Counted from the stretch's first letter, positions 24,886-43,814 are shown. The stretch: 64,000 nucleotides of DNA from a virus (IMGVR_UViG_3300050821_003663:39678-103677), one strand, 5' to 3'. Program-made: numbers and translations. Notes: generated from the letters alone by a model not told the origin.

Positions 24886-25226
24886 GAGCATGGTTTTCGG
24901 CAGCGGCCATAGTGGTGTTTCTCCTTGCGGTGACGGCGCTCTTTTTGGTGCATGAGTTCCCGCCAACTCCGCGAACGATTGGGCAGGTTTGCACGCTGCG
25001 GAAGGTTCCCGGAGGCCCACCGTTCGGAGACATGTACTACTGGCAAGACACCAGCGGAAAAGTCCCGGACGGGATCTGCGCTGATATGTATCCAGCGGGA
25101 ATCAACGGGTGGGGCGTAGATCTTCCACGGCCGCATCAGGCCACACTGACTCAGGAGTTTCCCACTTACGACGCTGCGGTAGCCTGGGTAGAGAGTCAGC
25201 CGTATCTGAAGAGGCACACGCGATGA
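24882..25226 (+). CDS. membrane-anchored hypothetical protein
   Basis: N-terminal hydrophobic helix. Confidence 0.5.
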   Translation: MRAWFSAAAIVVFLLAVTALFLVHEFPPTPRTIGQVCTLRKVPGGPPFGDMYYWQDTSGKVPDGICADMYPAGINGWGVDLPRPHQATLTQEFPTYDAAVAWVESQPYLKRHTR

Positions 25227-25540
25227 TTCAGCGCTACACCCCGCTCAAGCGAACGCCGATCAGGAAGAGGCGCAACAAGCCACGTCCCGGTCGAATCGAG
25301 GGCGAGGAGCTTCAAGCGCAGCGATGGAGGATATTCCAGCGTGACAAGGGTATCTGCGTGAAGTGCGGCCGCAAGGTCATATTCAATGCACCTGACGAGT
25401 GGCCAAACAGCTTCCACCGTGCTCACAGGAGAAACAAACGGATGTGGGGAGATGACGACAGCAACGTAGAGAGCAACTGTGGCGACTGCCATCGCGAGCA
25501 TCACACCGGCGGCAAGGTCGTACCGCCAAAGGCGACGTAA
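25223..25540 (+). CDS. HNH endonuclease
   Basis: RDKGICVKCG...H.AH...N....CGDCHREHH. Confidence 0.8.
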   Translation: MIQRYTPLKRTPIRKRRNKPRPGRIEGEELQAQRWRIFQRDKGICVKCGRKVIFNAPDEWPNSFHRAHRRNKRMWGDDDSNVESNCGDCHREHHTGGKVVPPKAT

Positions 25541-25588: not shown

Positions 25589-26902
25589 GTGAGGACCACG
25601 CTCAAGCTGCTTCTTGTGGCCATACTCTGCTGTGTCCCAGCAGCAGCTCAGACGGCTGTTATCTCCGGTCAGGCAGTCAATCAGTATGGGCAACCCGTTC
25701 CATTCGCACAGGTTAGAGTATGTAACGTAACTCTATCGGGGAACCCCTGCGACACAACCGGCGTTACCCTCTATCAGGATTACACTCGGCTCACACCCAT
25801 CGGGAATCCCGCCAGCGCAGATCAGTACGGCAACTATCTCATCTACGTCGGAGCGCTCGCATCGCCGAATCTCTACCTCGTGCAGCTCTCACCGGCAGCG
25901 GGGATTACATTCAACTACGGGTTCAACGGACCATTCTTGAGCGCATCGGGCGGAACGATCACGGGGAACCTCGTCGTCACGGGGATCTTTACAGCCGGAA
26001 CGATCAATACGCTATCGACCTACGAGGTGAACGGTTCGCAGATCGCGAGCTCTAATCTGGCCGACGGTAGCAACCTGGCCAAGCTAAACGCTTCGAACAT
26101 CTTCACCGGAGCAACGCAGACCGCGCCAATCTTCAACGCGACGACGCAATTTCAGGTGAACGGCATCCAGATCGCCAGCGCCAACCTCTCGGACGGAAGC
26201 AATCTCGCCAAGCTAAACGCAGCGAACGTATTCACCGGGTCACCTCAGACCGTGAACGTACTGAATGCGACAACCGTCAACAGTGCTGGCTACCTCGTTG
26301 GCAGCTCGGGAGGGAGTGCTGGCCAAGTACTATGCTCGAACGGCTCATCTCTCAACTCTCTTTGCACGGTCTACTCTCCGTCGAACACGCCCTTCTACCA
26401 AACCGTAAAGAGCCTATCGACGAGCATGACACAGCGCCTAGCGCTGGAGTTCACAGGGAGATTTGCTCTGACCGACTCAGCCTCACCGTCCCAGACCGGC
26501 GTGGATCTCAACGGCACGGGAACGGGAGGCAAGGCCGTCACAGCCACGGCCGCAGGGGCGGCGGGCAACTGTGGCTTCTGGACAGGCGCCGGAGACATCG
26601 GGGACAGCGGGGTTCCTTGTGCGCCTCAGATCGAGACCATCAGCGTGCCGGCAGGGTCAACCTGTACGACATCCGGTGCGAGTGACGCGGTTTGCACATT
26701 CCTTGTCACCTGGCCGGCGGCGTTCCCGAATACGAATTACACCGTGACCTGTACCGCAGGAGCGCTTACGGCGGGAACTGTGCTTATTGGGCCACGATGG
26801 TCAAACAAGACGACCACTGGAGTGACGATAACGATTCAGAACGGGACCAACGACGGAGCACTGGCAACGAATGCCCCAGTGGATTGCACGGGCATTGCCT
26901 GA
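25589..26902 (+). CDS. tail-fibre-like protein with signal peptide
   Basis: Signal peptide ...CCVPAAA/Q; head-binding-like N-domain (GQPVPFAQVRV...LYQD...NPASADQYGNY); two ~43-aa shaft repeats; gp53/H-lectin-like tip (VTWPAAFPNTNYTV, NKTTTGVTI). Confidence 0.7.
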   Translation: MRTTLKLLLVAILCCVPAAAQTAVISGQAVNQYGQPVPFAQVRVCNVTLSGNPCDTTGVTLYQDYTRLTPIGNPASADQYGNYLIYVGALASPNLYLVQLSPAAGITFNYGFNGPFLSASGGTITGNLVVTGIFTAGTINTLSTYEVNGSQIASSNLADGSNLAKLNASNIFTGATQTAPIFNATTQFQVNGIQIASANLSDGSNLAKLNAANVFTGSPQTVNVLNATTVNSAGYLVGSSGGSAGQVLCSNGSSLNSLCTVYSPSNTPFYQTVKSLSTSMTQRLALEFTGRFALTDSASPSQTGVDLNGTGTGGKAVTATAAGAAGNCGFWTGAGDIGDSGVPCAPQIETISVPAGSTCTTSGASDAVCTFLVTWPAAFPNTNYTVTCTAGALTAGTVLIGPRWSNKTTTGVTITIQNGTNDGALATNAPVDCTGIA

Positions 26903-26921
26903 GAAGTACTGGGAGGAATAG

Positions 26922-29900
26922 ATGTGGCGTCTAGCAAAAGCGTTACTGGTTGGGATTCTTGCAGCGGCCGCGCCCCTGCTGGCCCAGCCAACAATTAGCA
27001 ACGTCTATGTTTCGGCCGCCACGAGCACCACCGCCACGTTCACATGGACGACCAACACCCCATCGACTTCCCAGGTCCGGTACGGCTTCGACATCAGCTT
27101 GCCGTTCAACAACAACCCTGATTCGAATCTGGTGACAACGCACACGATGACGCTGACGTTTCTTCAGCCGTCGACGTTCTACTACTTCGCGGTCGTGTCG
27201 GCAGATTCCGGAGGGAATTCTTCGCAGTCGGCTACATCAAGCTTTTCGCTATGCTCCCCTGGAGAATCGGGAATTGTGCCAGTGCAAGGCACGGCCAACA
27301 ACTTCTACATGTATGGAACGTTCACGCTGACGTGGGTTCCGCCAGCGGGATCGAGCGGAACGCCAATGATTTGCGGACAGCCGATGGCTACGACGGCGAC
27401 GGGATCCTTGGACGGAGGGGCATCGCTATCATCATCCGTGGCGGACTCCTACAAGGCGATTCCAGGACCGGGAACGTGGCACGTCGCGGTGACCGACTAC
27501 GGGAACATTGCTCCAGTCGGCTTCAACTTTCCGATCTCTACGCAGAGCAACAACGTTTCCACGCCACTCAAGGCGGCCGCTAATGCATCAGGGCTAAAGT
27601 TCTGCCTGTCTACAGGGAGCGCGTTATTTCCATCGGACTGCGGTGGTGGCGGAGGATCTCCGCTGGTTGTGGAGATCAACGGCACACCGATATCCCCATC
27701 TAGCCCGGCCGATTTCGTAGATACCTCATCGGTGCATTGGACATTCTCCGGCGGGACAATTCAGGCCGCAGCTTCGGGAGGGAGTGGAGCGCTACCAGCA
27801 GCGCCGGCATACAGCGGTCAGTTTGCAAACGCAACCGTAACCGCGTTTCAGGCCGATCAGGTTCCAGCTTATGGCGTGAATTCGGCCTATAACTATAACC
27901 CCCTGACGCACGTGCTCGGGGTGAACGCCGTCAACGGTCTCGGTTTCATTAGTCCGTCTCAGACAAGCGGCGGCGACGGGCAGGCGGCATTCTTCAGCGG
28001 CAAGACGAACGCATTTGGGATAATCGACAATCTTGAGCTTGTCACGGGACAAGTAAGCGGCGTGACCGGCACCGGCGGTACTGGCATGACGCCGGGAACG
28101 TACTCGCTATCCTTCTCTGGTGGTGGTGGAGGATCAGGTGCGGCCGGCCTCATCGACGTGCTCACAGCGACGACATACGTTATTTCGGTGTCGAACCCAG
28201 GGACAGGCTATACGAGCGCTCCCACGGTCACCGCAGCTACCGGAGGAACCCCTCCAGCGCTGACAGCCACGATTGCGTCTGCATCCGATCCTGCGCAACC
28301 GCCGGGTAGCGGGAATATGATTTTCGATTTCCGCACCATTACTGGAACCTTTGGAGTGCGGTCGACGAATTGTGTGGCTAACAACACTATCGAGTCCTCT
28401 TTAGGCCAGCCTGACTCTCCCTGCCTTCAATCTGTCGTTTACGACAATGATCCCACGGCGACACGCGACCCCTTGTTTCTCGGCCTTCTAACGTATGGCC
28501 AAGGTCGGGACGTAGGCAACCAAGGAGCACTGGCGAATAGCGATCAAGGGTGGACTAACTCAGGAGCGCTCAATCTCGGCTTCGTTGTCTTTCGTCCGGG
28601 GATCAAGGGCGGCCTGACACTCGTAAACAACTGCCCATCCCAGGGTGATTGCAACGATTTCTCTGCATATAACCCCAACATAGGCTGGGCGCTCGCCGCC
28701 TCCGATGAAGGGCAAAATGGGTTTAGAAATAACAGTTCAGACTCTTCTAACGGAAGGGGCTATGTAACGGCCACAGTCAATACCGTGCCGAGTCCCGGTC
28801 AGCCAACCTACTCTAACGTATCCGGAGACTTCTTTAAGCCGGGGGGCATTTTGGTAGACACGACCCAGCCTTCGTTAGCGTTCTCGATCACCTCTCAATC
28901 GACGTCTTGGAACGCCCCGGCTGTGCTGTCGATGAATATCGGTCCACCCAACGGGCAAGGGTCAGGGCAGACTCCCAGCCTCGAATACACCGTAAGCTCC
29001 GTGGCAACCTCCAGCGGAGGCACGACAACCTACACGGGTACTTTTCCGGGCTGCACCGCAAATAATTTTGCGGGCCAGTACTGGTCATTCCAGAACTTCA
29101 ACGGCAACTTCGCTATCGGCGGGCCAAACAACGGAATCTATCTGGTTGCATCTTGCACCACGACCACTATGGTCGCGAATAATCCGCACGCTGTAGCGGC
29201 CACTTCCGCGTTCGGTGTTGCCATCCAAAACTATCAAATTGCCTGTTCTGGTGGAGGTGGCACAGGGCTGGTCGCAGTAGCCTCCGTTGGGCCTGGTGGA
29301 AATATCGGAGTTCAACCTGCAATCGTTGATCCGGGTTCGGGGTACACCTCTGCTCCTACGGGATGCGCCGTAACCGGAACAGGTGGGACACCCGCCACCT
29401 TTGGCGCTTCTCTGCAATCTCCGATGGGGCTTATCCCTATTACTGGGATCACCTTGACTCCGTCTACAGGGCAAGCAGTAACGCTGGACTATATTTCGGC
29501 AGCTCAACTCCCCACGCCAATGACGAATGTCTCAAGCGTAGTTCGCGTTCGAGTGGAGAATTCGCTACCTATCACCACCGGCTACGCATGGTTTATTGAC
29601 CCCACCGCACCTGAGTTGTGCGCTGTCACTAATGCGCCCGCAGCAGTGAGTGGGATCCAAACCTTGACGGTCTCGTGCCATCAGGCTCACGCGAACCCTA
29701 ACTACGTTACCCAGGGTTCAACTCCCGCTTGCCTGTGGCCGGATGCGAACTATACACAATACGGCTTCCCTGAGTGCTACGACTTGTTTGGAGCGCCTGA
29801 CTCATCCCACCTGTGGGGCGGCTTCACGGTCAAGGGAGCTCTAGTCGGCAACGGCATCCCCCGAGTAGGCAATGAATGGGCCGACGTAACTACAGGAAGA

Positions 29901-32900
29901 AACCCAGCTAACGCCACTTACCACGCATATCAGGCAACCCACATTCTCTATGATTCCGCCGGAACCGGATTCAATCCCGTTCTGAATGTCAGCGGGATCA
30001 ACTTCACTTCCGCAGATGCGATTTTCGGCATAGGCAATCCGTCTGTCACCTACAAGGGAATCAGTATGTCGGCGGTTCTAAACACTCCGATCAATGGAGG
30101 AGGATCGCAAACTGCCGTCTGGGGGGCTCAGGGGCAGCATGTTAGCCAAGGGTTCATCTTCACCGACACCATCAACGGCAACAATTTTGGGTACTATCAG
30201 GGCTGTGGATCTGGGTCGACTCAGTTCGTCTGCGTTCTTGCGACTCCTGGGGGACCGCTGATTGGCCCGATAGACCACAACGTCGTCGGCGCCTTTCAAA
30301 TCGGAAACCACTGGGCGCAACCTCCGATCCCCGGAGGTTCCCTGATCGACATAGGGGCATCACCCACGCCTTACACCTACGGAATCGTTAGTCCGGAGCT
30401 TGGCAACGTCGGAAATTTCAACGTATGTCCTTCCTGCAATGCGTTCCAATTCACGAACAATCTTGAGATCGGCAACAACACCAATACCCTCACCCTCACC
30501 CTTAGAGATTCTTTTGGGTCAGGAACGAACACCACATTTCTCGCGGTGAACCTCCCTCCGGAGGTGGTCTTCCTCGATTCAGTGTCTAACTTCGACAACA
30601 TGGCCGAGATGTCAGGGCTGGCATTTATCGGCTCTTCGATTTACGCCGGAGGGCAGCAGTCGGGCGCACTGATTGTCTCGCCTAATACCGGCGGGTCTAC
30701 AACGTGGTGTTATACGGTGACCTCTGTTACGCCTGTCGGAGAAAGCAAGGGCCTGTCACCTATCTGCACCAACGCTGGCGCGGTCACACCGAATAATTCT
30801 GTCAACTTCTCTGCCGCTACCCCCGGAGTCCACGCTTACAACGTCTACCGCGTTGCCAACGGTGCGGGATGTACTGGATGTGGAGGCACGGGGCCTGCTG
30901 GAGCATTAGCCCGAAATACGACTGCGAATCAGGTAGATACCGGGACGCTCGTCGATAGTGGGCTGCCTCCTACGGCTGACACTTCGGGAATCATGTACAC
31001 CCCGCAGTGGAATCAGGCATCGAAGACGTTCGGAATCTCTGGTGCGGGTCACGGCATCGGTCTTGTGCCGGATCCAGGGTCAACTTCGGGCGCGACTCGG
31101 TTCCTTCGTGAAGACGGAACATGGGATGTCCCAGGCGGCGGCGGAGGAGGAGGGTGCGGTCCTCTTGCCGGCGATGCGACATCAACGAATTGCGGAAATG
31201 GAAACCTCGGCACACCTCCGGGCGGAGCAAACAACCTGCAGGCATTCGGAACGAACAACCTCAACACCGACACTCCTGCTGAAGTGGTAGCGTTTGGTTC
31301 AAGTAACGCCAACACGAACCACGCCTCAGAGCTTGTGGCTATCGGTGATACGAACGCGACGGCGATTGCGACATCGTCAGCGGACGTCATCGGCATTGGG
31401 AACAACAACGTTGCTACCGTAACAGGGTCAATTCCAGATCTGATCTGTATCGGCGACGGGAATTGTCAGACCATCTCATGGTTGCAGGATTCCGTGGGAA
31501 TCGGCAACGCCAACTTCCAGAACAATGTAGGGGTAAGCAGCTCAACCTTCCTGTCTGAAGCTGTGGCTATCGGGCTCGGAAACGTGGGGTTCATCAATAA
31601 CGGAGCTACCGTCATCGGGATTGGCCAGTCGGCGGCTGGCGGATGCGGGCCGTCGCAGGGGGACTTTTGTACGGGCCAGCACGGCAGCAACAATATCAAC
31701 GACGTGATCTCAATAGGAGACTCCTCCGGCAATACCATCGGGAGCAACGTAGACGACGTCATCCTGATTGGGGATGGGGTGATGGACAGCGTGGCTCCAA
31801 GTTCGTCCGACATCATCGGAATCGGAGACGCCGCGCTTCAGGAGTGCGAGATTTCGGGGAGCTCTTCCTGTGCTTCCTTGTCCATACCAACCCCCACCGC
31901 CATGTCCCAAGTAATCGGGATCGGCACTCTCGCGGGCGCCTTCGACCAGGGGAGCAACATCATCGCGATTGGTCTCAGGACGGTTGGCGGTGGTGGATCC
32001 GCCTCGCCAATCACCGGCAATTCGGGGACTTTCAATATCGGTATCGGGGACAACGCACTAGCTAAAAACACCACAGGAAGTAATAACGTAGCTCTAGGAC
32101 CGTATGCAGGCGCAGACGGGTATGTCTTTCCGTCGACCTTTGGCAATTCCAATAAGACCGGTTCGAATAACACGTGGATCGGTTACGATTCTGGGCCGAA
32201 CACGACCACGCAACTGTCGAACACGATTGCGCTGGGCTACACAGCGCACAACACAGCGTCTAACCAAATCGTTATTGGTAACTCGTCGATCACGCAGTCG
32301 ATCATGTTCGGATCGCCGCAGTTCCCAACCATCGCGCCTGGAAGCGTCTCTTGCCTGCAGATAGATGCCAGCGGAAACGTGACGCCTACCGGATCTGGTT
32401 GCGGCGGCGGCGGCGGCTCGGGCACGGTGACCAACTTCATCGCATCGTCGGGTTCATGGCCTTCGTGGTTGACGCCAAGCGTTGCGACATCGACGACGAC
32501 GCCTACGCTGTCGGTTACTGCCAGCGCGATTCCGAATTCAGCTCTGGCGAATGCTTCGACCACGGTGAACGGCGTGACTTGCACGCTCGGATCAACTTGC
32601 ACAATTTCAGCTTCGGTCGTATGGAGCTCAATTGGCAATCCCACGGGCAATCTATCGCTCACGATGGGTGCGAATACGAGTACGTTCGCCTTCGGAGCGA
32701 CGAGCGGATCGGCCGACTTATTCAACATTCATGATGCCGCCAGCGACACCGGCACCGGCATCATGTTCCACATCACGACTGGGTCGGGCTCGACAGAAAT
32801 CCCGTGGCAGGTTGACGCCAACGGAGTTGGATTCAAGATAACCCCCACCGGCATCCTGCAAGGGGTTGGTTCTGCTACCACCCACGCGCTTATCTTCGCT

Positions 32901-33353
32901 TCGAGTTCGGTAGCGGCAACGCCATCTTCCGGCGAGGCTATCTACACGTCGGACAGTTCGGGTAATGCAGTCGGATCCAGCAACGGCTCAGCGCTGCAAC
33001 CGTTCCTGATGGGAACCTTCCCGTGGTCTTGCCAGCCTGGACTAGGGGACGGAAGCAACGCTATCACGGGCGCCACCTATCCCCAGACCAACTGCTACAA
33101 CGACACGGGTAAAACCGTTACGCTCACCGGCATCAAGTGCTTCACGGATAACAATGGCTCCTCAACGCTCAACGCGACCAACGGCGGAGGCACAGGGCTT
33201 CTCACGGGAGCGATCACCTGCACCACCTCCTTCGCGGCGGGAAGCCAGAGCGGAACGACAACCATTGCTGCCGGCGATTACATTAAGTTCAGCTTTGTGG
33301 CGGACGGCACTAGCAAGCAAGCGACGTTTGTCGTTACGGGGACGCATCCATGA
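26922..33353 (+). CDS. large fibre/adhesin-like protein with signal peptide, 2143 aa
   Basis: Signal peptide ...APLLA/Q; FN3 domain; two G[TS]GYTSAP repeats; YadA-head-like V[IA][GA]IG repeats; CGGGGG linkers; C-terminal beta-sandwich. Confidence 0.7.
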   Translation: MWRLAKALLVGILAAAAPLLAQPTISNVYVSAATSTTATFTWTTNTPSTSQVRYGFDISLPFNNNPDSNLVTTHTMTLTFLQPSTFYYFAVVSADSGGNSSQSATSSFSLCSPGESGIVPVQGTANNFYMYGTFTLTWVPPAGSSGTPMICGQPMATTATGSLDGGASLSSSVADSYKAIPGPGTWHVAVTDYGNIAPVGFNFPISTQSNNVSTPLKAAANASGLKFCLSTGSALFPSDCGGGGGSPLVVEINGTPISPSSPADFVDTSSVHWTFSGGTIQAAASGGSGALPAAPAYSGQFANATVTAFQADQVPAYGVNSAYNYNPLTHVLGVNAVNGLGFISPSQTSGGDGQAAFFSGKTNAFGIIDNLELVTGQVSGVTGTGGTGMTPGTYSLSFSGGGGGSGAAGLIDVLTATTYVISVSNPGTGYTSAPTVTAATGGTPPALTATIASASDPAQPPGSGNMIFDFRTITGTFGVRSTNCVANNTIESSLGQPDSPCLQSVVYDNDPTATRDPLFLGLLTYGQGRDVGNQGALANSDQGWTNSGALNLGFVVFRPGIKGGLTLVNNCPSQGDCNDFSAYNPNIGWALAASDEGQNGFRNNSSDSSNGRGYVTATVNTVPSPGQPTYSNVSGDFFKPGGILVDTTQPSLAFSITSQSTSWNAPAVLSMNIGPPNGQGSGQTPSLEYTVSSVATSSGGTTTYTGTFPGCTANNFAGQYWSFQNFNGNFAIGGPNNGIYLVASCTTTTMVANNPHAVAATSAFGVAIQNYQIACSGGGGTGLVAVASVGPGGNIGVQPAIVDPGSGYTSAPTGCAVTGTGGTPATFGASLQSPMGLIPITGITLTPSTGQAVTLDYISAAQLPTPMTNVSSVVRVRVENSLPITTGYAWFIDPTAPELCAVTNAPAAVSGIQTLTVSCHQAHANPNYVTQGSTPACLWPDANYTQYGFPECYDLFGAPDSSHLWGGFTVKGALVGNGIPRVGNEWADVTTGRNPANATYHAYQATHILYDSAGTGFNPVLNVSGINFTSADAIFGIGNPSVTYKGISMSAVLNTPINGGGSQTAVWGAQGQHVSQGFIFTDTINGNNFGYYQGCGSGSTQFVCVLATPGGPLIGPIDHNVVGAFQIGNHWAQPPIPGGSLIDIGASPTPYTYGIVSPELGNVGNFNVCPSCNAFQFTNNLEIGNNTNTLTLTLRDSFGSGTNTTFLAVNLPPEVVFLDSVSNFDNMAEMSGLAFIGSSIYAGGQQSGALIVSPNTGGSTTWCYTVTSVTPVGESKGLSPICTNAGAVTPNNSVNFSAATPGVHAYNVYRVANGAGCTGCGGTGPAGALARNTTANQVDTGTLVDSGLPPTADTSGIMYTPQWNQASKTFGISGAGHGIGLVPDPGSTSGATRFLREDGTWDVPGGGGGGGCGPLAGDATSTNCGNGNLGTPPGGANNLQAFGTNNLNTDTPAEVVAFGSSNANTNHASELVAIGDTNATAIATSSADVIGIGNNNVATVTGSIPDLICIGDGNCQTISWLQDSVGIGNANFQNNVGVSSSTFLSEAVAIGLGNVGFINNGATVIGIGQSAAGGCGPSQGDFCTGQHGSNNINDVISIGDSSGNTIGSNVDDVILIGDGVMDSVAPSSSDIIGIGDAALQECEISGSSSCASLSIPTPTAMSQVIGIGTLAGAFDQGSNIIAIGLRTVGGGGSASPITGNSGTFNIGIGDNALAKNTTGSNNVALGPYAGADGYVFPSTFGNSNKTGSNNTWIGYDSGPNTTTQLSNTIALGYTAHNTASNQIVIGNSSITQSIMFGSPQFPTIAPGSVSCLQIDASGNVTPTGSGCGGGGGSGTVTNFIASSGSWPSWLTPSVATSTTTPTLSVTASAIPNSALANASTTVNGVTCTLGSTCTISASVVWSSIGNPTGNLSLTMGANTSTFAFGATSGSADLFNIHDAASDTGTGIMFHITTGSGSTEIPWQVDANGVGFKITPTGILQGVGSATTHALIFASSSVAATPSSGEAIYTSDSSGNAVGSSNGSALQPFLMGTFPWSCQPGLGDGSNAITGATYPQTNCYNDTGKTVTLTGIKCFTDNNGSSTLNATNGGGTGLLTGAITCTTSFAAGSQSGTTTIAAGDYIKFSFVADGTSKQATFVVTGTHP

Positions 33354-34270
33354 TGAAGCTATTGGTTGCATTAGTCCTATCTAGCCAGATCGTTGCCGGC
33401 GGAGGGCATCGCAAGATCTTCTCCTCCAGCGCCCCTCTGTCGTTGCTCGACTACACGCCAAACGGTACTTCTGACGTCAAGCTGGCTTGCAGCTTCTCTC
33501 ACGCGCTGAAGCAGAGCTGGACCGCGCATCTTATTCAGATCACCAGAGCCAGCGACTCGACTACGTCGGATGTGACGCCTCTATCGACCGGAGCGATCAA
33601 TCAGACGACGATCACCACCTTCTGCTCGGGGACAACCTGTACCGTCTCGAAGTGCTATGACGAATCAGGCAACACGAACGACATAACCTTCTCGCCTGGG
33701 CCAATCATTTACCAGAGTGGCGCTGTTATCACGAACGGGCCGAACAGTCGTGTAGCGGCATCCTTCACGGGATCTCAGTCTGGTACAGCTACGGTCACCC
33801 TGACGGGGAGCACAGTCGAAGGAATGATGGTGGGGAATTTCAATAACCCCTTGTCTACCTACCAAGGCTTGCTTGAGGTAAGCAACGGATCGAGTAGCTG
33901 CAGCGGGAGCGTGACCTACGTCTGCATCTTTCTCAACTCCGGAGGAACAAACGCGGTAGGCGCGTATTACACGGGCACCGGCGGAGCAACGCAGGCGATC
34001 ACCTGGGGCACAGCGTTCTACGCCGACATGTTCGCCACTCTATCTGGCGGATCCCCTGAGATTGCTATGGCACTCAACGGAGGCTCATTCAACACCACGG
34101 CTGCTTCGGCAAACAACCTGTCTGCCACAACTGCGATAATCGGAACAGATATCGGCGGCAGCAACCTGAATGGCTACGCGCAGGACATAGTTCTCTTCGT
34201 CACGCAATCGAATTCGACCCAGCGCACCAACGCGCACACCGTTGAATCCACCTTTTTTGGGACGCCATGA
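33350..34270 (+). CDS. secreted lectin-like (AbfB/LamG-type) protein
   Basis: Signal-peptide-like N-terminus; IQITRASDS...FCSGTTCTVSKCYDESGNTND resembles arabinofuranosidase-B/ConA-like domains. Confidence 0.6.
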   Translation: MMKLLVALVLSSQIVAGGGHRKIFSSSAPLSLLDYTPNGTSDVKLACSFSHALKQSWTAHLIQITRASDSTTSDVTPLSTGAINQTTITTFCSGTTCTVSKCYDESGNTNDITFSPGPIIYQSGAVITNGPNSRVAASFTGSQSGTATVTLTGSTVEGMMVGNFNNPLSTYQGLLEVSNGSSSCSGSVTYVCIFLNSGGTNAVGAYYTGTGGATQAITWGTAFYADMFATLSGGSPEIAMALNGGSFNTTAASANNLSATTAIIGTDIGGSNLNGYAQDIVLFVTQSNSTQRTNAHTVESTFFGTP

Positions 34271-37200
34271 AGCGATACCTCTTACTTGCCGCGATGTTCC
34301 TGCTGGCCGCTGTTGGCCACAGCACTACCTGGTACGTCACCACCGGGGGCAGCGACTCCAACCCATGTACCCTTGCGAGCCCTTGCGCTACGCCGACCCA
34401 TGCTTTCAATTCTGTCGCAGCTCCGGGGGATACGGTGAACGTCGGACCCGGCGTCTACAGCTACGGTTCCAGCGCGGCCATCTTCAGCACGGCGGGGACA
34501 GCGGGCAATCCGATCACGGTTACCTGCGCCACTCGCGGCACCTGCCGCATCACCAATACCGTCACGGGCAACGCAACCGTGGTGGAGATGAACAACAACT
34601 ACCAGATATTCGATGGCTTCGAAGTTACCAACACCGGAGCGGGAAACAATCTCGGCATCTATGTCACCGGCCACGACGTCAGCCTGACGCGGAATACGAT
34701 TCACGACATCCAGACTGACTGCTCATCTTCTGGTGGAGGCGGAGTTCAAATCGCTGTTTCCAACCTGACCAACATCGTCATCGACTCGAATCAGGTTTAC
34801 AACATCTCATGGGTCTCGGGTGCTCCGAAATGCGCGTCGACCGTAGTGCAAACGGACGGCATCCTCGCCGAACAGACCGGCTTCACCACGACGACGACGA
34901 TCACCAATAACCTCATCTACAACACCTCTGGCGGGTGGGGAATCGCAACCTCAACCAACGCGCTGATCGCGCACAACACCATCTTCAACACAGTGAATGG
35001 CGGCGTCGTCGTCAATAACGCTCCCTCCGGCGCGGCGGTTGAGGACAACATCATCGTCTACACCGGCCTCCTGGCGAGCGACTCGAACTTCTATGGTGGC
35101 GCGTGCGCGATCCAGAACGGCACTGCCTCGACTACCACCTACGGCCATAACGAGCTCTCCAATAATCATGGTGGAAACTACGGCACCGGATTCGGATGCT
35201 CTGGCTCCGGCCTCAACACGGGGGACATCGCAGTCGATCCTGCCGGCGGAACTGTCTTCGTCAACTGGCAGCAAAATGGCTCAGGGAACTACCACGAGCT
35301 GTCCAGCTCGCCGACCGTCAGCGCTGGAACCAACGTCGGCGTCACGCATGACTTCGATGGCCACGTTCGTCCGACCGCTGGGTACGACATGGGAGCATTT
35401 CAGTACGGCGTTGTGACGGGAATCGCACTCTCTCCGAATGGCGGGGTGGTGATCGCGAACGGAAGCCCTGGAATCACCTTCCTTCCGACTTGCACCTTCA
35501 CTATCGGGCCTCCCGCTCCATGTCCTGCTCCTGTGTGGGACACTCCTACTGACGCGCTTCTGACCGCGAATGGCGGCTCGGTAGCGGGAGGTGTCTTGAC
35601 GTGGTCCAACGGCTACCAGCCAAACGACACATCCCTCTTCCCGTTCGGAGCTCAAACCGCGATTGGTGTCATCCACGGCTGCGACTCATCGAGCGGAACG
35701 AAGTATTGCGATTTCGCTCAGGTACTCGCTCTCGAATCTCCAAGCGGGACGATCAACATCTATCCCACCCCTTCTCCGGGGTTCTATCAAAACATCCAAC
35801 TCTCCAGCTCTTACTACACGGCGGATCTAGTGGTTGGATCGACCGCTGCGATAGGGACAGGATTCCAGTGGGCCGGCTCGGGCTACTACAACCCAATCCA
35901 GTTCGCGTGTACATGGTCTTCGTCGAATAACGCTATCGCCACGATTACTCGCTATGGGCTGGTCACAGGCGTTTCACCGGGAACGGTGACCGTCTCTTGC
36001 AATATAGCGCTAGGCCCTGGCGTGACTATCGACAATACAGTGTCGAATGCTGGGCAGACCTGGACGTTCAACGTCATCAGCCCAACGCCGTCGAACCAGA
36101 TATGGTATATCCGGCCTGACGGCGGAACGCCCTATTACTCCGCCGGCCAGACTCCATCCGGCCAATGCGACGGCAAGCATGACGCCTCGTACGCCAGCAC
36201 GGGAGGCACCGGAGTCAATCAGCCCTGCGCCTTCGACAACTTCAGGGACGGATGGGCAGATGAGGTTACGGCAAACTCTTATGGTCTGGCGGGGAGTCAG
36301 AACATGCTCTACGGCGCTGGCGATACCGTTATCATTCGCCAGAAGACAGGAGGCTACAATCTCGGCCTCGATCAGCTCGCCCCCGCCTACGGCGGATCCG
36401 CTACGGTCCCTATCAACTGCGGGAACCCAGACTGCTTCATGCCGACGATTCCATCCGGCGCTCCGATTGCAACCGCGACGGGATACTCGATCAACCTGGG
36501 TGTAGCGACAATCTCAGCTACCAACACCCTGTCTGCTGGCAATGTGGTGAAGCTTGGATTCGCCTCGGCGCCTTTCGGTGGAGCTAACTACACCGTTATG
36601 TCGGCTGGACTCAGCAGCTCTCAATTCGAGGTTCTAATCACCGCGCCCAACGTGAGCTTCACCTCGGCCGCCGGCGTGGTCGTAAGGCCAACGAGGATCC
36701 TCGGAGAGAACTATGCGGCTTGCTCGGCCGACTCCTCGAAGACTCAGCTCAATCTCTCATGGGCAACTCTCAACGGCATCAGCATCCTCGACTCCCAGTT
36801 CGTCGACGTAGAGTGCGTCTATATCACGCAGGCAGCATCATGCGGCACAGGTGGAGGCGGGTTCGCCCCAAACAATTGCAAGAACAGCAACCTCAACTAT
36901 GGCTGGTCAGGAGTGAGAGAATCAGCCTTCAGTTCCAATGACACGCTAACCAACATTTTCATTGACGGCGTTGGATTCGAAGGGGTCAGCGGTGCGACTG
37001 GGGCAGGGCTAGTTTTCGATCACCTCCACATACGAGGCGCACCTTTCACGGGAATTGATATGGACGATACGCCCTACGGTGGGATCTCAAACATCTCCGT
37101 CGCGGGCGGATTAACGATGACGAACTCCATCATCGAATTCACCGGATGCACGGAAGAGAAGCCGATTGTCCACAACTACCCATTCATTCAATGCATCGGG

Positions 37201-38499
37201 CAGAACGGCGGCGGGCAGGGCGATGGGTTCGGCACAGCCTCCACCACCGGAACGTGGGTCTTCGACCACGATATCTTCCGCTTCAATCTCCAGGATGGTC
37301 TCGATCTCCTTCACTCGGGGATGCAGAACCTCTCCGTTACTAACTCGCAGGGTTACGGGAGTATCGGCAACCAGTTCAAGCTGGGTTCGAATACCGGCAA
37401 CGGAAACTTCACCAACAACTACGGGCTGTCAAACTGCCAGCGCAGCGCCTTCACGATTGGAGATGAGCCGTCCTCGGGAGTCAACACCACGGACATCTGC
37501 CGCGCTAGCGCCACCGGCCCGCTTCTGTGGCTCTGGTTTGCCTATGGCACCTACACCGCGTACAACAACACCTTCCTCGGCTACGCTCCTACGGCGGTCA
37601 CCTACGAGTGCGACTACGGCAGCGACAACTGCTCGGGTGCGAACACGGCTTTTGTCAATAACGTCATCAACGGCTGGGCCACAGCCAGCGGCTACAACGG
37701 CGGTGCGAATATGGGGGCGTTGTGTGCGCTGAATATCTTTGCTCGCAACAACTGCAACGGCACCCTCACCCGCTACCCAGCCAACCAAGGATTCGCCGCT
37801 CGCTCGAACAACGTCTACAACGGCATGGGAAGCTGCCCGCTGACCACTCTGAGCACGGAGACCTGCAACAATAGCCCAACCTCAAGCTTGCCGGGATTCA
37901 GCTACAACCAGTCCACCAACACTCTCCCCTATACGCTGGCGGGGGAATCGCTGATGGATCCCTTCAACTTCCCCTCGAATTACAACGGGACATATCTAGT
38001 CGGGACAGCGCAGGGTGTGTATCCGGCGTCAGGGTCGAGCCTGATCTCAGCTTTTGGTGTAGCCGTTTCCGGCTTGCTGGTTGATTCTATCGGCTACACC
38101 TACGCAAACCCACCCAGCATCGGCTACCTCCAGTTCCAATCGGGCACACCGACGGCATCGCAGCCAACGGCATCGCCAACACCTGGCACGTACGGCAGCA
38201 CGCAATCGGTGACATTGTCGACGACGACATCGGGCGGGGTGATCTGCTACACCATCACCGGAGCAACGCCGACCGCGACGACTGCTGGAACCTGCGACGG
38301 CTCTCCGACGCAGACGTATACCGGGGCGATCACCGTTTCGACGACGACTACGATCAAGGCCATCACGACGGCAGTCGGATTCCTGAATTCATCTGTGGGC
38401 AGCTTCACGTACACCATCGGTGTAGCAGCGCCCACGGGGTTGACAGGAGGAATCGGGACCACCCTACTAGGTGGAGCGGGAGTGACCTTGCAGCGATGA
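34267..38499 (+). CDS. secreted beta-helix (pectate-lyase-like) depolymerase/adhesin, 1410 aa
   Basis: Signal peptide; WYVTTGGSDSNPCT (DUF1565-like); beta-helix repeats; DFDGHVRP..YDMGAFQ; Big_2-like WSSSNNAIATI; second beta-helix; chitobiase-C/Fn3-assoc PTPGTYGSTQSVTLS. Confidence 0.75.
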   Translation: MKRYLLLAAMFLLAAVGHSTTWYVTTGGSDSNPCTLASPCATPTHAFNSVAAPGDTVNVGPGVYSYGSSAAIFSTAGTAGNPITVTCATRGTCRITNTVTGNATVVEMNNNYQIFDGFEVTNTGAGNNLGIYVTGHDVSLTRNTIHDIQTDCSSSGGGGVQIAVSNLTNIVIDSNQVYNISWVSGAPKCASTVVQTDGILAEQTGFTTTTTITNNLIYNTSGGWGIATSTNALIAHNTIFNTVNGGVVVNNAPSGAAVEDNIIVYTGLLASDSNFYGGACAIQNGTASTTTYGHNELSNNHGGNYGTGFGCSGSGLNTGDIAVDPAGGTVFVNWQQNGSGNYHELSSSPTVSAGTNVGVTHDFDGHVRPTAGYDMGAFQYGVVTGIALSPNGGVVIANGSPGITFLPTCTFTIGPPAPCPAPVWDTPTDALLTANGGSVAGGVLTWSNGYQPNDTSLFPFGAQTAIGVIHGCDSSSGTKYCDFAQVLALESPSGTINIYPTPSPGFYQNIQLSSSYYTADLVVGSTAAIGTGFQWAGSGYYNPIQFACTWSSSNNAIATITRYGLVTGVSPGTVTVSCNIALGPGVTIDNTVSNAGQTWTFNVISPTPSNQIWYIRPDGGTPYYSAGQTPSGQCDGKHDASYASTGGTGVNQPCAFDNFRDGWADEVTANSYGLAGSQNMLYGAGDTVIIRQKTGGYNLGLDQLAPAYGGSATVPINCGNPDCFMPTIPSGAPIATATGYSINLGVATISATNTLSAGNVVKLGFASAPFGGANYTVMSAGLSSSQFEVLITAPNVSFTSAAGVVVRPTRILGENYAACSADSSKTQLNLSWATLNGISILDSQFVDVECVYITQAASCGTGGGGFAPNNCKNSNLNYGWSGVRESAFSSNDTLTNIFIDGVGFEGVSGATGAGLVFDHLHIRGAPFTGIDMDDTPYGGISNISVAGGLTMTNSIIEFTGCTEEKPIVHNYPFIQCIGQNGGGQGDGFGTASTTGTWVFDHDIFRFNLQDGLDLLHSGMQNLSVTNSQGYGSIGNQFKLGSNTGNGNFTNNYGLSNCQRSAFTIGDEPSSGVNTTDICRASATGPLLWLWFAYGTYTAYNNTFLGYAPTAVTYECDYGSDNCSGANTAFVNNVINGWATASGYNGGANMGALCALNIFARNNCNGTLTRYPANQGFAARSNNVYNGMGSCPLTTLSTETCNNSPTSSLPGFSYNQSTNTLPYTLAGESLMDPFNFPSNYNGTYLVGTAQGVYPASGSSLISAFGVAVSGLLVDSIGYTYANPPSIGYLQFQSGTPTASQPTASPTPGTYGSTQSVTLSTTTSGGVICYTITGATPTATTAGTCDGSPTQTYTGAITVSTTTTIKAITTAVGFLNSSVGSFTYTIGVAAPTGLTGGIGTTLLGGAGVTLQR

Positions 38500-38510
38500 G
38501 AGGAGATACC

Positions 38511-38975
38511 GTGATCGGCAAACTTATTCTGATGCTCTGCATTGCGGCTCCGCTGGCCGCACAGCCCGCCAACTTGGGTTGGACGGCCTCCACCACCCCT
38601 GGAACGTCGGTAGACCTGTACAGGGCCACAGGGACGTGCCCTGGCACCGCCTACGCGCTCCTGCAGGCCAACCTGCCAGCCGGCGGACCTGCGACGGACG
38701 CCACGGTAACCGTGGGGAACACATACTGCTGGTATGTGACGGCGGTTCTTGGCGGAATTCAGTCGCCCCCTTCTAATACTTTGCAGTTGTCCGTGGCGCC
38801 AACAGCACCCAGCAACCTGACTGGATCGGTATCGAGAAACGTCACCAAAACGATCACCTACCAGATGGCCCCTCTGAAATGTTCGGGCGGAAGGACGGTT
38901 ACTCCGCCAAAGCTCACTTGCACAGCGGTTTATACTCCTAGCACTAATTCGATTGCGCTGAGTTGTCACACGTAA
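38511..38975 (+). CDS. secreted FN3-like protein
   Basis: GTG after GAGGAG; signal peptide ...APLAA/Q; LGWTAS...LYRA...D.TV..GNTYCWYVTAV...SPPSN. Confidence 0.7.
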   Translation: MIGKLILMLCIAAPLAAQPANLGWTASTTPGTSVDLYRATGTCPGTAYALLQANLPAGGPATDATVTVGNTYCWYVTAVLGGIQSPPSNTLQLSVAPTAPSNLTGSVSRNVTKTITYQMAPLKCSGGRTVTPPKLTCTAVYTPSTNSIALSCHT

Positions 38976-38992
38976 GCTCGAAGGACAACTTC

Positions 38993-40057
38993 ATGAAGTT
39001 CGCACGATACATCGCCGCGCTACTATTCACGGTTCCGCTGATGGCGCAGAGCCCACCGCTCATTCCCGTTGCCGGATACGTGTCTTCCGATTCCGGCGCT
39101 ACCTGGGAACCGCTGACGGGTGGAACCGGTACACCGGTATCCGTCGCTCCTCCGGGAAGCGCGATCTATGCTTCGTGCGGCACGAACCTGTGGTGCCCGT
39201 GGAATGGAGGTGGTGGCGGTGGTGGATCGGTTTCAATCACCTCGCCTAGCGGTAGCCTCACGGTTTCTCCGTCCCCCCTCACTGGCACCGGCACAATCGA
39301 CCTCAATGCAGCCCACAACGCAGCGTGGACAGTCAACCAGTCGATCACTTCGGCACAAGGCTCTGGAGCGGGCGCGACTCTTGCACTTTCGAATACGAGC
39401 GGATCTGCCCTGGCGAAGCTAACCTTCCAGTCTCTTAGTGGAACGGGGTTTGAGATCTACGACGGGAGTCCAACATTTGCCAATGGTTTTATCGGAATCG
39501 CCAACATTGCCGAGAACGATTTTCCGGTAATGATAAAAGCGCAGTCGATGTTCCTTGAAGTCGGATCGGTGATCGGAATTTCAAGTTCGAGTGTTCCTAC
39601 GAGTGTCGATACTGGACTTAGCCGGGACTCTGCGGGCGTATGGGATGTGGGCAATGGAACGCAGGGAGACAAGTCGGGAACCCTCAAAGCCGCCAACATA
39701 GTACTGACCGGAACCTGTACTGGATGCACCCCGCTCTATCTCAATTGGACCTTCAACTCCGGTATCGCGGCAACCGATGCAGCGCCTCGATTCCTCGCGT
39801 CTCACGCAGCCACGATTTCAGCCTGCTATGCGCTGACAACGGCGTCCGACGCTTCTACGGCGCTAACGTTCAACATCTTCGACAACGGGTCGTCGATATT
39901 TTCTGGCGGAGCGCAGACAATCGCAGCGGGAACCGCAGCGGGAACACTTACGACGCTTGGAGCGCTGGGGACGACCGCGATTGCCAACAATGATAAATTT
40001 TCCATCAACATCACCAGCGGAACTTCGAGCTGGATCTTTACGGTGCAATGCAAATGA
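38993..40057 (+). CDS. short fibre-like protein with signal peptide
   Basis: Signal peptide ...VPLMA/Q; poly-Gly linker; DTGLSR.SAGV..VGNGT fibre-type segment; C-terminal domain similar to that of 26922-33353. Confidence 0.65.
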   Translation: MKFARYIAALLFTVPLMAQSPPLIPVAGYVSSDSGATWEPLTGGTGTPVSVAPPGSAIYASCGTNLWCPWNGGGGGGGSVSITSPSGSLTVSPSPLTGTGTIDLNAAHNAAWTVNQSITSAQGSGAGATLALSNTSGSALAKLTFQSLSGTGFEIYDGSPTFANGFIGIANIAENDFPVMIKAQSMFLEVGSVIGISSSSVPTSVDTGLSRDSAGVWDVGNGTQGDKSGTLKAANIVLTGTCTGCTPLYLNWTFNSGIAATDAAPRFLASHAATISACYALTTASDASTALTFNIFDNGSSIFSGGAQTIAAGTAAGTLTTLGALGTTAIANNDKFSINITSGTSSWIFTVQCK

Positions 40058-41481
40058 AAAATCTGATCTTCATTCTCACATTGCTTGTCCCTATACCGGC
40101 GTTCGCCACCTTTGGTGCGGCGACCGCGTGGGATGTCAAGACGACTGGGGCAAATACGAATGGTGGCGGGTTTGACTCGGGCGTGGGTGCTCCCGGCACG
40201 GACGAAAGCCAAGGTTCAGGTACGGCAATCACATGCACCCTGACTGGAACCACAACCGCGACATGCTCTCCGGCGATCTCCGCAACGACGCACGGGCCGG
40301 GGAACTTTATCAACATCGCCAGCGGCTCCGGATGCACCACCGGATGGTACGAGATCCTTTCGCAATCAAGTGGCACCGCGACCTTCGATCACGCGATGGG
40401 AACTGCGACCGATGCATGTGTAGGGGTGGTGGGCGGCTCTTTGTCCACGATCCAACAGGCGAACACTAACTCCGTTGCCAGTAACGCTATCTGGTGCTCG
40501 GGAACCTACACCTTCACGACTACCCTTGCCGTCGCTCAATCAACGGTCAGCTTCATCGGCTATGGCTCGACTCACGGCGATGGAACACTCTGTTCATGGA
40601 CGACTGCTACCAACTCGACCGTAATCATCAACACGGGAAGCTCAAACGGCGGAACCCAGACGTTCCAAAACCTTAATCTGAGCAACACCGCTACGACGAA
40701 GGCAAGTGGCATTTACCAATTGAACGCTCACGGTACGACACAGGGCTGGAACTTTGTGAATGACACCTTCAACGGGTTCGCTGTGGCTATTGATTCCAGT
40801 GATGGCACTCCGGACGATGTGGCGTTCATCACAGTAGTCAACTCGCTCATCGAAAACAGCACAATCGCAGGCATATCAATGGGAGGGACCGATTTCGGCG
40901 TCCTCCGCATCTTCGGCAGTTCGTTCATCAGTAATGCTCAACACATCAGCATCAGCGACAACTCTCCGGTGACGATTGCTAGAACCATCTTCGCTGGATC
41001 GACGGCGGCTTTTGGGTTGAACATGGACTCGATTGATAGCACGACATTCGACAACTGTACGTTTGCCAACAACGTGAACAGCAGCGCGACGGTTGGCTTC
41101 ACGAGTAACAATGCGTTTTTCGCTTTGACGAACAACATCTTCTACGGGAATACGGGTCTCGGGCTAGCAGTTATAACGTCAACAGGAAATGGCGCAATCC
41201 GTGGTTTGGCAAGCAGCCACAGCAACGCTTTTGGAAATAATACTGGCGGAACAGGATGGCCGGGAAGCGTAGGAGATGTGGCACTGACCGCTAATCCGTT
41301 CACAAATGCCGGCTCAGGCGATTACTCGCTCAACTCGACGGCTGGCGGCGGGGCCGCACTGAAAGGTGCGGGATTCCCCGGCATCTTCCCCGGCGGAACA
41401 TCCACGGGACATGTTGACATCGGCGCAGTACAGAGTGCCGGATCTTCAACGACGGGGAATAATTTCGGAGTTTCTCAGTAG
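40054..41481 (+). CDS. secreted beta-helix protein
   Basis: Signal peptide ...IPAFA/T; beta-helix repeats; NPFTNAGSGDYSL...DIGAVQ C-terminal motif. Confidence 0.7.
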   Translation: MKNLIFILTLLVPIPAFATFGAATAWDVKTTGANTNGGGFDSGVGAPGTDESQGSGTAITCTLTGTTTATCSPAISATTHGPGNFINIASGSGCTTGWYEILSQSSGTATFDHAMGTATDACVGVVGGSLSTIQQANTNSVASNAIWCSGTYTFTTTLAVAQSTVSFIGYGSTHGDGTLCSWTTATNSTVIINTGSSNGGTQTFQNLNLSNTATTKASGIYQLNAHGTTQGWNFVNDTFNGFAVAIDSSDGTPDDVAFITVVNSLIENSTIAGISMGGTDFGVLRIFGSSFISNAQHISISDNSPVTIARTIFAGSTAAFGLNMDSIDSTTFDNCTFANNVNSSATVGFTSNNAFFALTNNIFYGNTGLGLAVITSTGNGAIRGLASSHSNAFGNNTGGTGWPGSVGDVALTANPFTNAGSGDYSLNSTAGGGAALKGAGFPGIFPGGTSTGHVDIGAVQSAGSSTTGNNFGVSQ

Positions 41482-41783: not shown

Positions 41784-42266
41784 ATGGCCTCGCCGCAACA
41801 GATCGCCGCCAGGTTGGCCGTTGTTCCGGCCGCTCAGGCCGCAATGAGCCAATATGGAGTACCTGCCTCGGTAACTCTCGCTCAATGGGAATTGGAGTCG
41901 GGCTGGGGAACAAGTAAACTCGCTACCGAAGCCAACAACTTCTTTGGTATAAAGGCGGAGCATCTGAACGACCCGAATACCTACGAGGAGTTCCCAACGT
42001 GGGAGTATGAGAACGGCCAGCGCGTCTTGGTTGAAGCGGACTTCGAGAGGTATCCGGATGCGGCTTCTAGCTTCGCAGATCACGGAAGACTGTTATCTCA
42101 AGCTACTCGCTATGCGCCCGCGATGGCTGTCAAGGATGATCCTTACGCTTTTGCCAACGAGCTTCAAGCCTGCGGTTACTCGTCGTCGCCGGATTACGGA
42201 ACCAGCTTGGGAAATATCATCCGGGGAGCGAATCTCACGCAGTACGATCTACCCCAAGGAGGGTGA
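41784..42266 (+). CDS. endolysin, GH73 (FlgJ-like glucosaminidase)
   Basis: GVPASVTLAQWELESGWG, NNFFGIKA, GYSSSPDY motifs. Confidence 0.9.
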   Translation: MASPQQIAARLAVVPAAQAAMSQYGVPASVTLAQWELESGWGTSKLATEANNFFGIKAEHLNDPNTYEEFPTWEYENGQRVLVEADFERYPDAASSFADHGRLLSQATRYAPAMAVKDDPYAFANELQACGYSSSPDYGTSLGNIIRGANLTQYDLPQGG

Positions 42267-42269
42267 CTC

Positions 42270-42677
42270 ATGCACACACTCGCACTGATCCTCACGGCAG
42301 TAACGCTCACGATCCCGCCGGCAGCGAAGACCCTTGCAGTGGTGGTCGCGGTCTACGGTGTATTGCAGGGCCTCAAGAAGATCCCAGCGCTAACAGCATT
42401 CCTGACGGGATGGAAAGCCGTGGCTTTCAACGTGGTCTTCTCCGTCGTAGGACAGCTTGCCGTGATTCCGGCCGGCCAGCTTTACACAACTGACACACTC
42501 AACTCGATCATCCAGACGATAATCATGGTGTTGAGCGCTGCAGGAATTCACGGAACCGTTCGTTCGTTCAGTGCGCCAACAATGCAGGCAACAACGCCGC
42601 CTGACACGAAGGTGAAGGAAGTACCCGCAGAGCTCGTGCCGAAAGACCCTGCGGACATCCCAGTAAAGAAGGAATAG
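42270..42677 (+). CDS. holin-like multi-TM protein
   Basis: Several hydrophobic segments, charged C-tail, adjacent to endolysin. Confidence 0.6.
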   Translation: MHTLALILTAVTLTIPPAAKTLAVVVAVYGVLQGLKKIPALTAFLTGWKAVAFNVVFSVVGQLAVIPAGQLYTTDTLNSIIQTIIMVLSAAGIHGTVRSFSAPTMQATTPPDTKVKEVPAELVPKDPADIPVKKE

Positions 42678-43487: not shown

Positions 43488-43814
43488 ATGAAAAGTCACG
43501 CGGGGATTCTCTTGTTGTTCACTTTGGCGATGCCGTCTCTCGCCCAGGTTGCTCTTCCAACCGCGCTACCTAAAACCTCTACTGAGGCTGCCCAGCGGAC
43601 TATCGCAATGGACGACCAGATTCGAACGCTGGAGGAGCAACTCAAGCTGAACCCCACCTTCAAGGCGTGGCAGCGCTTGAAGGAAGAGCGGCAACAAATG
43701 AGTAACCTTGCAGACACGATGCGCGTCAGCGAGGACGAAGCGGCCAGCCGTGCTGCCCATCAAGCTGCAATAGACGCTGCATTGAAGAAAGCCCAGCAGA
43801 ATCCACCAAAGTAG
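43488..43814 (+). CDS. secreted coiled-coil protein
   Basis: Signal peptide ...MPSLA/Q; helical body. Confidence 0.6.
   Translation: MKSHAGILLLFTLAMPSLAQVALPTALPKTSTEAAQRTIAMDDQIRTLEEQLKLNPTFKAWQRLKEERQQMSNLADTMRVSEDEAASRAAHQAAIDAALKKAQQNPPK

Follow-up and report, generated by a model that had tools for sequence, protein, structure and literature searches.

The window analysed here, a 64,000-nt stretch of DNA, comprises bases 39678-103677 of a single virus record (IMGVR_UViG_3300050821_003663) of 103,677 bp and 57% GC. At positions 25589-41481 of this window, seven consecutive plus-strand genes encode proteins that combine predicted N-terminal export signals (leaders) with domains reminiscent of phage fibres and spikes. 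The block opens with gene 1 (25589-26902), which starts with GTG and encodes 437 amino acids (aa), and continues with gene 2 (26922-33353, 2143 aa), gene 3 (33350-34270, 306 aa), gene 4 (34267-38499, 1410 aa), gene 5 (38496-38975, a small, leader-bearing and Cys-rich product of 154-159 aa), gene 6 (38963-40057, 354-364 aa) and gene 7 (40048-41481, 475-477 aa). Because neighbouring genes mostly overlap by at least 4 nt, the block reads as one operon. A preliminary description of this DNA had proposed that all seven products are exported, disulfide-bonded in the periplasm and docked onto phage particles at or after lysis; its open reading frames (ORFs) and the N-termini quoted in it proved correct. 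Likelier start codons of gene 5 (GTG 38511, behind AGGAG) and gene 6 (ATG 38993) probably lie a few codons inward and still before the leader, and the leaders are not escaped by choosing a downstream start.

Each of the seven products begins, as had been suggested, with a leader of the Sec/signal peptidase I type, composed of a basic n-region, a hydrophobic core of 7-15 residues and a small-x-small site, as called by inspection combined with a hydropathy rule. The predicted site is followed by Gln at position +1 in five of the seven proteins. The weakest leader is that of the 306-aa gene 3 product, which is borderline with a core of 7-8 residues. A lipobox is absent from all seven proteins, again as described earlier, and so is an RR/twin-arginine (Tat) motif; likewise, the mature parts contain no membrane segment (KD19 of at least 1.6), save for one marginal stretch in the 1410-aa gene 4 protein. 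Among the ~103 plus-strand ORFs of the 103,677-bp genome, just two further ones carry similar leaders, and the probability of finding seven of these nine leader-bearing ORFs in a run by chance is below 2e-7. Both additional ORFs encode coiled-coil proteins. One of them (20088-20588, plus strand, 166 aa) is located within the recombination/replication region; a role as a Skp/OmpH-like periplasmic chaperone for exported fibres was considered for it and is unsupported, with a weak match (E 0.017) and nothing in the Atlas. The other (43488-43814, plus strand, 108 aa) is encoded two genes past a holin-like gene and might function as a spanin-like or accessory lysis protein in the periplasm.

The mature block proteins contain 1.5-3.8% Cys, mostly in even counts, and the block as a whole reaches 2.1% compared to 1.4% elsewhere. 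The closely spaced Cys pairs noted previously are indeed present: the 40 Cys of the gene 2 protein fall into 20 consecutive pairs and the 34 Cys of the gene 4 protein into 17, with a median gap of 12-13.5 residues inside a pair versus 62-77 residues between pairs (permutation p < 1e-5 for gene 2 and 8e-5 for gene 4). In contrast, the capsid, adaptor and tail proteins, which are presumed to be built in the cytoplasm, contain 0-0.9% Cys, and a 312-aa, a 619-aa and a 3708-aa protein of the same genome contain none. This contrast between paired Cys in the block and Cys-free virion proteins argues for oxidative folding of the block in a compartment outside the cytoplasm, and for folding of the other virion proteins inside it. 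The total avoidance of Cys across 3708 residues is striking in itself. The 3708-aa protein (3228-14354, plus strand) has a central ResIII/DEAD helicase-like stretch, and its homologues in related phages (3614-3810 aa) contain 0-0.1% Cys. It is preceded by the 619-aa protein (1360-3219, plus strand); both look like ejection proteins and are probably ejected internal proteins.

Gene 1 encodes a leader (residues 1-20), a beta-sandwich anchor (21-125), shaft repeats (~130-300) and a variable lectin-like tip (346-437). Its earlier reading as a fibre, with an N-domain of the head-binding kind, a shaft built of repeats and a tip like that of Gp53 or H-lectins, is borne out by weak fold matches only: the Gp53-like_C match (E 0.004) is under the Pfam cut-off, and fold searches revealed a weak resemblance of the tip to H-type lectins and a pyocin fibre tip. 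The beta-sandwich was modelled confidently by AF2 (pLDDT 84-96 for residues 21-120). Its fold matched the Pam1 tail-machine chain 7eeq_A (Z 7.6, root-mean-square deviation (rmsd) 6.1, 94 residues aligned), the P22 gp9 N-domain in situ (8eb7_0, Z 6.7, rmsd 3.0, 87 residues aligned; 8tvr_A, Z 6.5) and Sf6 gp14N (7sg7, Z 5.3), and its BFVD matches were domains of tail spikes and exopolysaccharide (EPS) depolymerases.

A HMMER search with the 105-residue anchor alone against 1.84 billion representatives retrieved 283 clusters with this domain, 95 of them with E <= 1e-10. In nearly all family members, proteins of 240-2037 aa with 1.1-3.4% Cys, the anchor occupies residues ~20-125 directly behind a classic leader; among the 150 best members, its first residue is almost always ~20-25. 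A small residue closes the predicted leader, and the Gln that comes next is at least 90% conserved. In the gene 1 family alignment, the leader is present, the C45/C54 pair in the anchor is invariant and the C-terminus is variable; among 28 gene 1 homologues, the leader pattern is kept while the leader sequence drifts. A Gln after the cleavage site has been described for Bacteroidota as the 'Q-rule'. The +1 Gln of the block and of the anchor family resembles this rule, and the relatives of the phage infect Acidobacteriota.

Cargo domains across the anchor family include Pect-lyase_RHGA_epim, Gp53-like_C, K1-lyase_C, GDSL esterase and Beta_helix, and the domain matches in the window itself are weaker than those in this census. 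Between genomes, the anchor is 42/44/71/32% identical, compared to 47/47/79/38% for the adaptor and other tail proteins; in its divergence the anchor keeps step with the tail proteins, whereas the remainder of the gene 1 protein is exchanged. An anchor that tracks the tail proteins, joined to swappable fibre, beta-helix and lectin-like cargo, is the signature expected of a receptor-binding protein. Both the gene 1 family and the anchor domain are located on phage-sized contigs. When gene 1 was compared by tblastn with 50,697 phage records, nothing matched, so that at BLAST level this anchor is absent from cultured phages.

The remaining six proteins show a range of fibre-like and carbohydrate-active features. 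The gene 2 protein consists of a leader, an fn3-like N-domain and a long unique body, and matches an fn3/purple-acid-phosphatase-N domain as well as, weakly, a tail-spike PHROG, the only PHROG match in the whole block. Its N-domain is the only part kept in the relative G001 (58% over residues 4-227). The YadA-head-like repeats previously proposed for this protein were not recovered, with neither such a Pfam match nor an internal repeat by BLAST. Gene 3 matches the GH54-type alpha-L-arabinofuranosidase B catalytic domain (PF09206, E 2e-16, 60.4 bits versus a cut-off of 25), in a partial match that places residues 44-258 on profile positions 13-217 of 315. Gene 4 encodes a leader followed by Big_2 and CHB_HEX_C/Fn3-associated domains, and its C-terminal 580 aa are homologous to the leader-bearing gp17 of the cultured phage Tunturi_2 (32% identity, 638 columns, E 5e-32). 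PDB sequence searches with gene 2, gene 4 and the 619-aa protein yielded nothing.

Genes 6 and 7 both have counterparts in L107, an unrelated 108-kb phage. The gene 6 protein carries a leader and a body rich in Gly/Ser/Thr, and shares its C-terminal domain with a 904-aa leader-bearing protein encoded at 3296-6010 of L107 (38% over 91 aa, E 2e-4); this domain of ~90 aa may be a common tip or docking module. Both proteins contain the motif IFS-G-x-TIAAGTA-GT and end in Cys plus a basic residue, and a similar TIAAG motif is present in the tail of gene 2. Gene 7 encodes a leader and a beta-helix-like body with N-x-I-F-x-G-N repeats and a weak DUF5123 match. Its full-length homologue in L107 (33%, E 6e-53) has a leader of its own and adjoins fibre-like genes.

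As had been noted, the block immediately precedes the lysis genes and is separated from the head genes, with DnaB and an HNH endonuclease gene (25109-25540, plus strand, directly upstream of gene 1) on one side and the endolysin gene on the other, while the terminase, portal and capsid genes are 50-60 kb away. The endolysin, encoded downstream of gene 7 (41784-42266, plus strand), is leaderless and matches endolysin PHROGs to E 4e-42; next to it lies the gene for a multi-pass membrane protein (42270-42677, plus strand) that by its sequence is holin-like. A capsid search identified 71 related IMG/VR loci, and five long relatives (G001-G005, 79-108 kb, three of the five rated complete) were examined in full. 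The endolysin found no match in these relatives as a synteny marker, and DnaB served as the marker instead. The gene order DnaB, one gene, HNH, leader-bearing fibre gene is kept in G001 and G002. The slot behind DnaB/HNH is occupied by leader-bearing homologues or analogues in G001 (genes 128 and 129) and G002 (gene 21), and by genes 33-37 in G004, with four leader-bearing genes in a row and products of up to 3155 aa. In addition, gene 93 of G002 (66030-67112, minus strand), which is located between two small tail-gene homologues, encodes a leader-bearing protein of 360 aa with 2.2% Cys. Leaders are thus conserved in homologous phage loci, namely in the gene 1 family, G001, G002, G004 and the L107 homologue of gene 7. 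When IMG/VR was scanned for close relatives with genes 1 and 4, nothing was found.

A conventional variable fibre or spike gene was found neither elsewhere in the window genome nor in the complete relative G001, which has two fibre-like genes only, both with a leader. Three candidates were considered and set aside. The 619-aa protein has a conserved N-terminal 200 aa and a variable remainder and directly precedes the 3708-aa protein; as a conventional tailspike it gave a poor Atlas model, and feature matches, taken as a lead only, pointed to injection/ejection proteins. The 312-aa protein (L002 18576-19514) is conserved over its whole length in 95 clusters, and its fold, a generic beta-barrel, is only weakly linked to endosialidase and tail parts; it is probably a core tail protein, although it may serve as a receptor binder. 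Lastly, a Cys-free 1303-aa protein in the tail module of G003, where large leader-bearing proteins are missing, has no support as a conventional fibre from Pfam or PHROGs.

Apart from the block, genes were identified for a large terminase, a portal, an Mx8-like major capsid protein, an SU10-type adaptor and a 1087-aa conserved tail or internal protein, together with recombination/replication genes and 28 tRNA genes. Because neither a tape measure nor a sheath was seen in the genome, the phage is podovirus-like. A prophage origin, which the preliminary description had entertained, is not supported: the sequence is a free phage genome of ~104 kb, and one fibre-repeat scan of GTDB genomes (one genome per species) led to a single short contig from a metagenome-assembled genome (MAG). 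The tRNA genes are grouped in three clusters upstream of the window (L002 9461-16838, genome 29.4-36.8 kb), in a region that also encodes a Ro60/TROVE-like RNA-binding protein (PHROG 850, E 5e-52). The interior of the structural module (L002 2241-5484, genome 22241-25484) carries genes for a PLOD-type glycosyltransferase and a B12-binding radical SAM enzyme as well as a third conserved gene, and a second, GT2-like glycosyltransferase gene (L002 17608-18552) adjoins the gene of the 312-aa tail protein. From the glycosyltransferase and radical SAM genes in the structural module, glycosylation or other modification of the virion is possible.

Cultured phages with comparable genes exist. Tunturi_1/2 (PP885685; PMC11924767) resemble the window phage in that five large leader-bearing proteins with mostly even Cys counts are encoded before the endolysin. 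In Tunturi_2, a 63-kb podovirus of Tunturiibacter psychrotolerans, these are gp12, 13, 14, 16 and 17, with 20, 10, 21, 2 and 34 Cys. Besides the homology of gp17 to gene 4, the terminase large subunit (TerL), portal, capsid and a ~1100-aa tail protein of Tunturi_2 are distant homologues of those of the window phage and its clade, which suggests an Acidobacteriota host for the latter as well. Tunturi_2 differs from the window phage in its 63-kb genome, in the position of the block directly after the tail protein gp11 and in the lack of a homologue of the gene 1 anchor. The paper describing the Tunturi phages leaves the leaders unmentioned and reports no virion proteomics (PMC11924767).

A second parallel comes from the Cellulophaga phage phi18:3 (NC_021794, Pachyviridae), in which gp085-gp087 carry leaders with Gln at +1. 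Similar to the block, these genes are consecutive, lie between recombination genes and the endolysin and are far from the head genes; unlike the block, they belong to a phage of a Bacteroidota host, encode few Cys (0, 1 and 3) and show no detectable sequence relation to it. The phi18:3 record labels gp085-gp087 as virion or tail proteins 'based on experimental MS/MS proteomics analysis' (MS/MS, tandem mass spectrometry), which is the sole experimental hint, by analogy, that such leader-bearing proteins may travel with particles.

With regard to architecture, gene 1 resembles podovirus tailspikes and fibres such as P22 gp9, Sf6 gp14 and the tail-complex chains of cyanophages Pam1 and Pan3, in which a small N-terminal beta-sandwich anchor is followed by a fibre or beta-helix and a variable tip; there, too, the anchor is conserved and the rest exchanged, and P22 gene 9 is likewise located apart from the other virion genes. 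In contrast to the block proteins with their leaders and paired Cys, these tailspikes lack a signal peptide, are assembled in the cytoplasm and show no sequence similarity to the block, whose place in the virion is a prediction. To our knowledge, all podovirus tailspikes and fibres known so far are made without a signal peptide. Outside phages, the mosaic adhesive trimer (MAT) fibres of Bdellovibrio bacteriovorus (PMC10769870) share the order of gene 1, with a signal peptide, a conserved beta-rich N-domain of ~130 aa, a phage-like trimeric fibre and interchangeable tips. This likeness is one of architecture only, and MAT fibres differ in that they are encoded by chromosomal genes of a predatory bacterium and are displayed on its own surface. 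WceF of Pantoea stewartii (PMC7949094) is, as the proteins of the block are predicted to be, an exported protein, a tailspike-like trimeric beta-helix that cuts the exopolysaccharide of its own producer; it differs from them in carrying a Tat instead of a Sec signal and in being a single bacterial gene within an EPS biosynthesis cluster. Leader-bearing unknown proteins of Porphyromonas phages have been read as modifiers of the host envelope (PMC10367356), and ~5% of prophage carbohydrate-active enzymes (CAZymes) carry signal peptides (PMC13507307). A literature search found no paper that describes signal peptides on the fibres of tailed phages.

The best explanation for these observations is that the block is a receptor-binding and polysaccharide-degrading module in which every protein is a Sec pre-protein. 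From leaders and Cys patterns we infer export, leader cleavage and disulfide formation, and we consider it highly probable that the block proteins are exported and fold in the periplasm. That they are, beyond this, disulfide-bonded receptor-binding proteins which dock onto particles when the holin opens the membrane appears to us an evenly balanced proposition. Attachment to particles is inferred from the architecture of receptor-binding proteins, the co-divergence of the anchor, the placement in tail modules in relatives and Tunturi_2, and the MS/MS annotation of phi18:3. Late in infection, the seven proteins would be exported across the inner membrane, signal peptidase I would cut off the leader and mostly expose an N-terminal Gln, and consecutive Cys pairs would be oxidised in the periplasm, while DNA-filled particles without fibres would pile up in the cytoplasm. 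Once the holin breaches the inner membrane, the pools of particles and fibres would meet, and the gene 1 anchor, and probably also the fn3-like N-domain of gene 2, would dock fibres and spikes on the short tail. That such docking as a last step is feasible in principle is shown by P22, whose tailspikes can be attached at the end of assembly, even in vitro.

Several points weigh against docking onto particles. Until lysis, the inner membrane would separate the capsids from the exported fibres, and assembly would have to be confined to a short interval around it; we know of no tailed phage that assembles its fibres in this way. The leaders are predictions from inspection and hydropathy of the sequence. 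The fold matches found for the anchor are of intermediate quality (Z < 8), and a carboxypeptidase D domain (Z 6.9) and the SusC NTE (Z 5.8) match it about equally; the transthyretin-like sandwich is common among secreted bacterial proteins. The blocks of phi18:3 and Tunturi_2 are, save for gp17 and gene 4, analogous and not homologous to that of the window, and sticky contaminants can show up in MS/MS of purified particles. Tunturi_3, an Acidobacteriota podovirus of similar size (97.6 kb) that is not closely related to the window phage, makes ordinary fibres without leaders, which shows that the trait is not required by the host. Finally, the phage could in truth bind its receptor through the conserved 312-aa protein, or through parts of the 1087-aa tail protein. 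In the main rival explanation, the block proteins are exported and never enter the virion, acting from the periplasm or cell surface as secreted fibre-shaped adhesins or glycanases on the capsule, EPS or lipopolysaccharide of the infected cell itself, an alternative that we regard as unlikely, though by no means negligible. Possible roles would be the release of progeny from the matrix, the destruction or masking of receptors (superinfection exclusion, shielding of progeny from debris) or that of a free depolymerase, and the conserved N-domain would then anchor the proteins to a conserved structure of the host envelope, as proposed for the MAT fibres of Bdellovibrio. All evidence for export fits this explanation equally, as do the position next to the lysis cassette and the GH54-type catalytic domain with the beta-helix-like bodies. 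Bacterial precedents are WceF (PMC7949094) and the MAT fibres (PMC10769870), and the envelope-modifier reading of the Porphyromonas phage proteins (PMC10367356) and the prophage CAZymes with signal peptides (PMC13507307) also speak for it. However, it would leave the phage without any recognisable variable receptor-binding protein. Moreover, proteins that destroy the receptor would be expected to have binding domains in common with the binder of the virion, and the genome is without such paralogues. The anchor also co-diverges with the tail proteins and weakly resembles the head-binding domains of tailspikes, comparable genes are placed within tail modules, and the phi18:3 proteins are annotated as being in particles.

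Less probable still are two further explanations. In the first, which we judge improbable, the proteins are virion fibres, and their hydrophobic N-terminus does not act as a cleaved export signal. Instead, it might be a signal-anchor that stays uncleaved and holds the fibres at the membrane until lysis, or a helix enclosed within the tail; alternatively, export might be limited to a part of the pool, with the rest assembled conventionally in the cytoplasm. Such an arrangement would sidestep the topological problem, and the hydrophobic segment, modelled as a helix by AF2, is the only membrane-type feature. Nevertheless, the family-wide combination of a small-x-small site with an almost unvarying Gln, placed immediately ahead of the folded domain, has the look of a cleavage site, the leader sequence drifts while its physicochemical pattern stays, as in true signal peptides, and the even-numbered, significantly paired Cys of the mature parts argue for oxidative folding. 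It is very improbable that the block is host-derived cargo, that is, carbohydrate-active 'auxiliary metabolic genes' recently taken from an Acidobacteriota host and unrelated to the mechanics of infection. While the domains are typical of secreted bacterial glycanases and the GC and AT skew of the block is unlike that of the rest of the genome, this skew is explained by amino-acid composition, as the block is rich in Gly/Ser/Thr/Asn and contains 1% each of Glu, Lys and Arg. In addition, the gene 1 family and its anchor reside on phage-sized contigs, the block stays behind DnaB/HNH in relatives, and the scan of GTDB with the fibre-repeat motif (one genome per species), a limited test in which the pattern covered the fibre repeat only, led to a single MAG contig of 1.5 kb.

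In the boldest reading, to which we give slightly less than even odds, the apparatus for host recognition is built outside the cytoplasm in an entire lineage of podovirus-like soil phages of ~100 kb that probably infect Acidobacteriota, via Sec export of fibres and depolymerase spikes, trimming, disulfide formation in the periplasm and attachment to finished particles without fibres only when the holin opens the membrane. Should the proteins instead act on the host envelope without entering the virion, the block would still constitute a large and unusual set of phage-encoded, secreted, fibre-shaped enzymes. Cultured phages with the trait (Tunturi_1/2 on Tunturiibacter and phi18:3 on Cellulophaga) make the question accessible to ordinary bench methods. 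If the fibres are indeed assembled extracytoplasmically, annotation would be affected, because signal-bearing glycanases in viromes from soil are at present classed as 'auxiliary metabolic genes', and fibres of this kind that are wanted for biotechnology would have to be expressed in the periplasm and not in the cytoplasm. They could be stabilised by disulfides and, in other hosts, be glycosylated in the periplasm, which would be plausible for long survival in acid soils, and the finding would bear on how the timing of lysis is coupled to the maturation of particles. The textbook assembly of tailed phages is wholly cytoplasmic; an extracytoplasmic route used throughout the lineage would be a second branch of tailed-phage assembly and, judging from similar cases among phages of Bacteroidota, might have evolved on more than one occasion.

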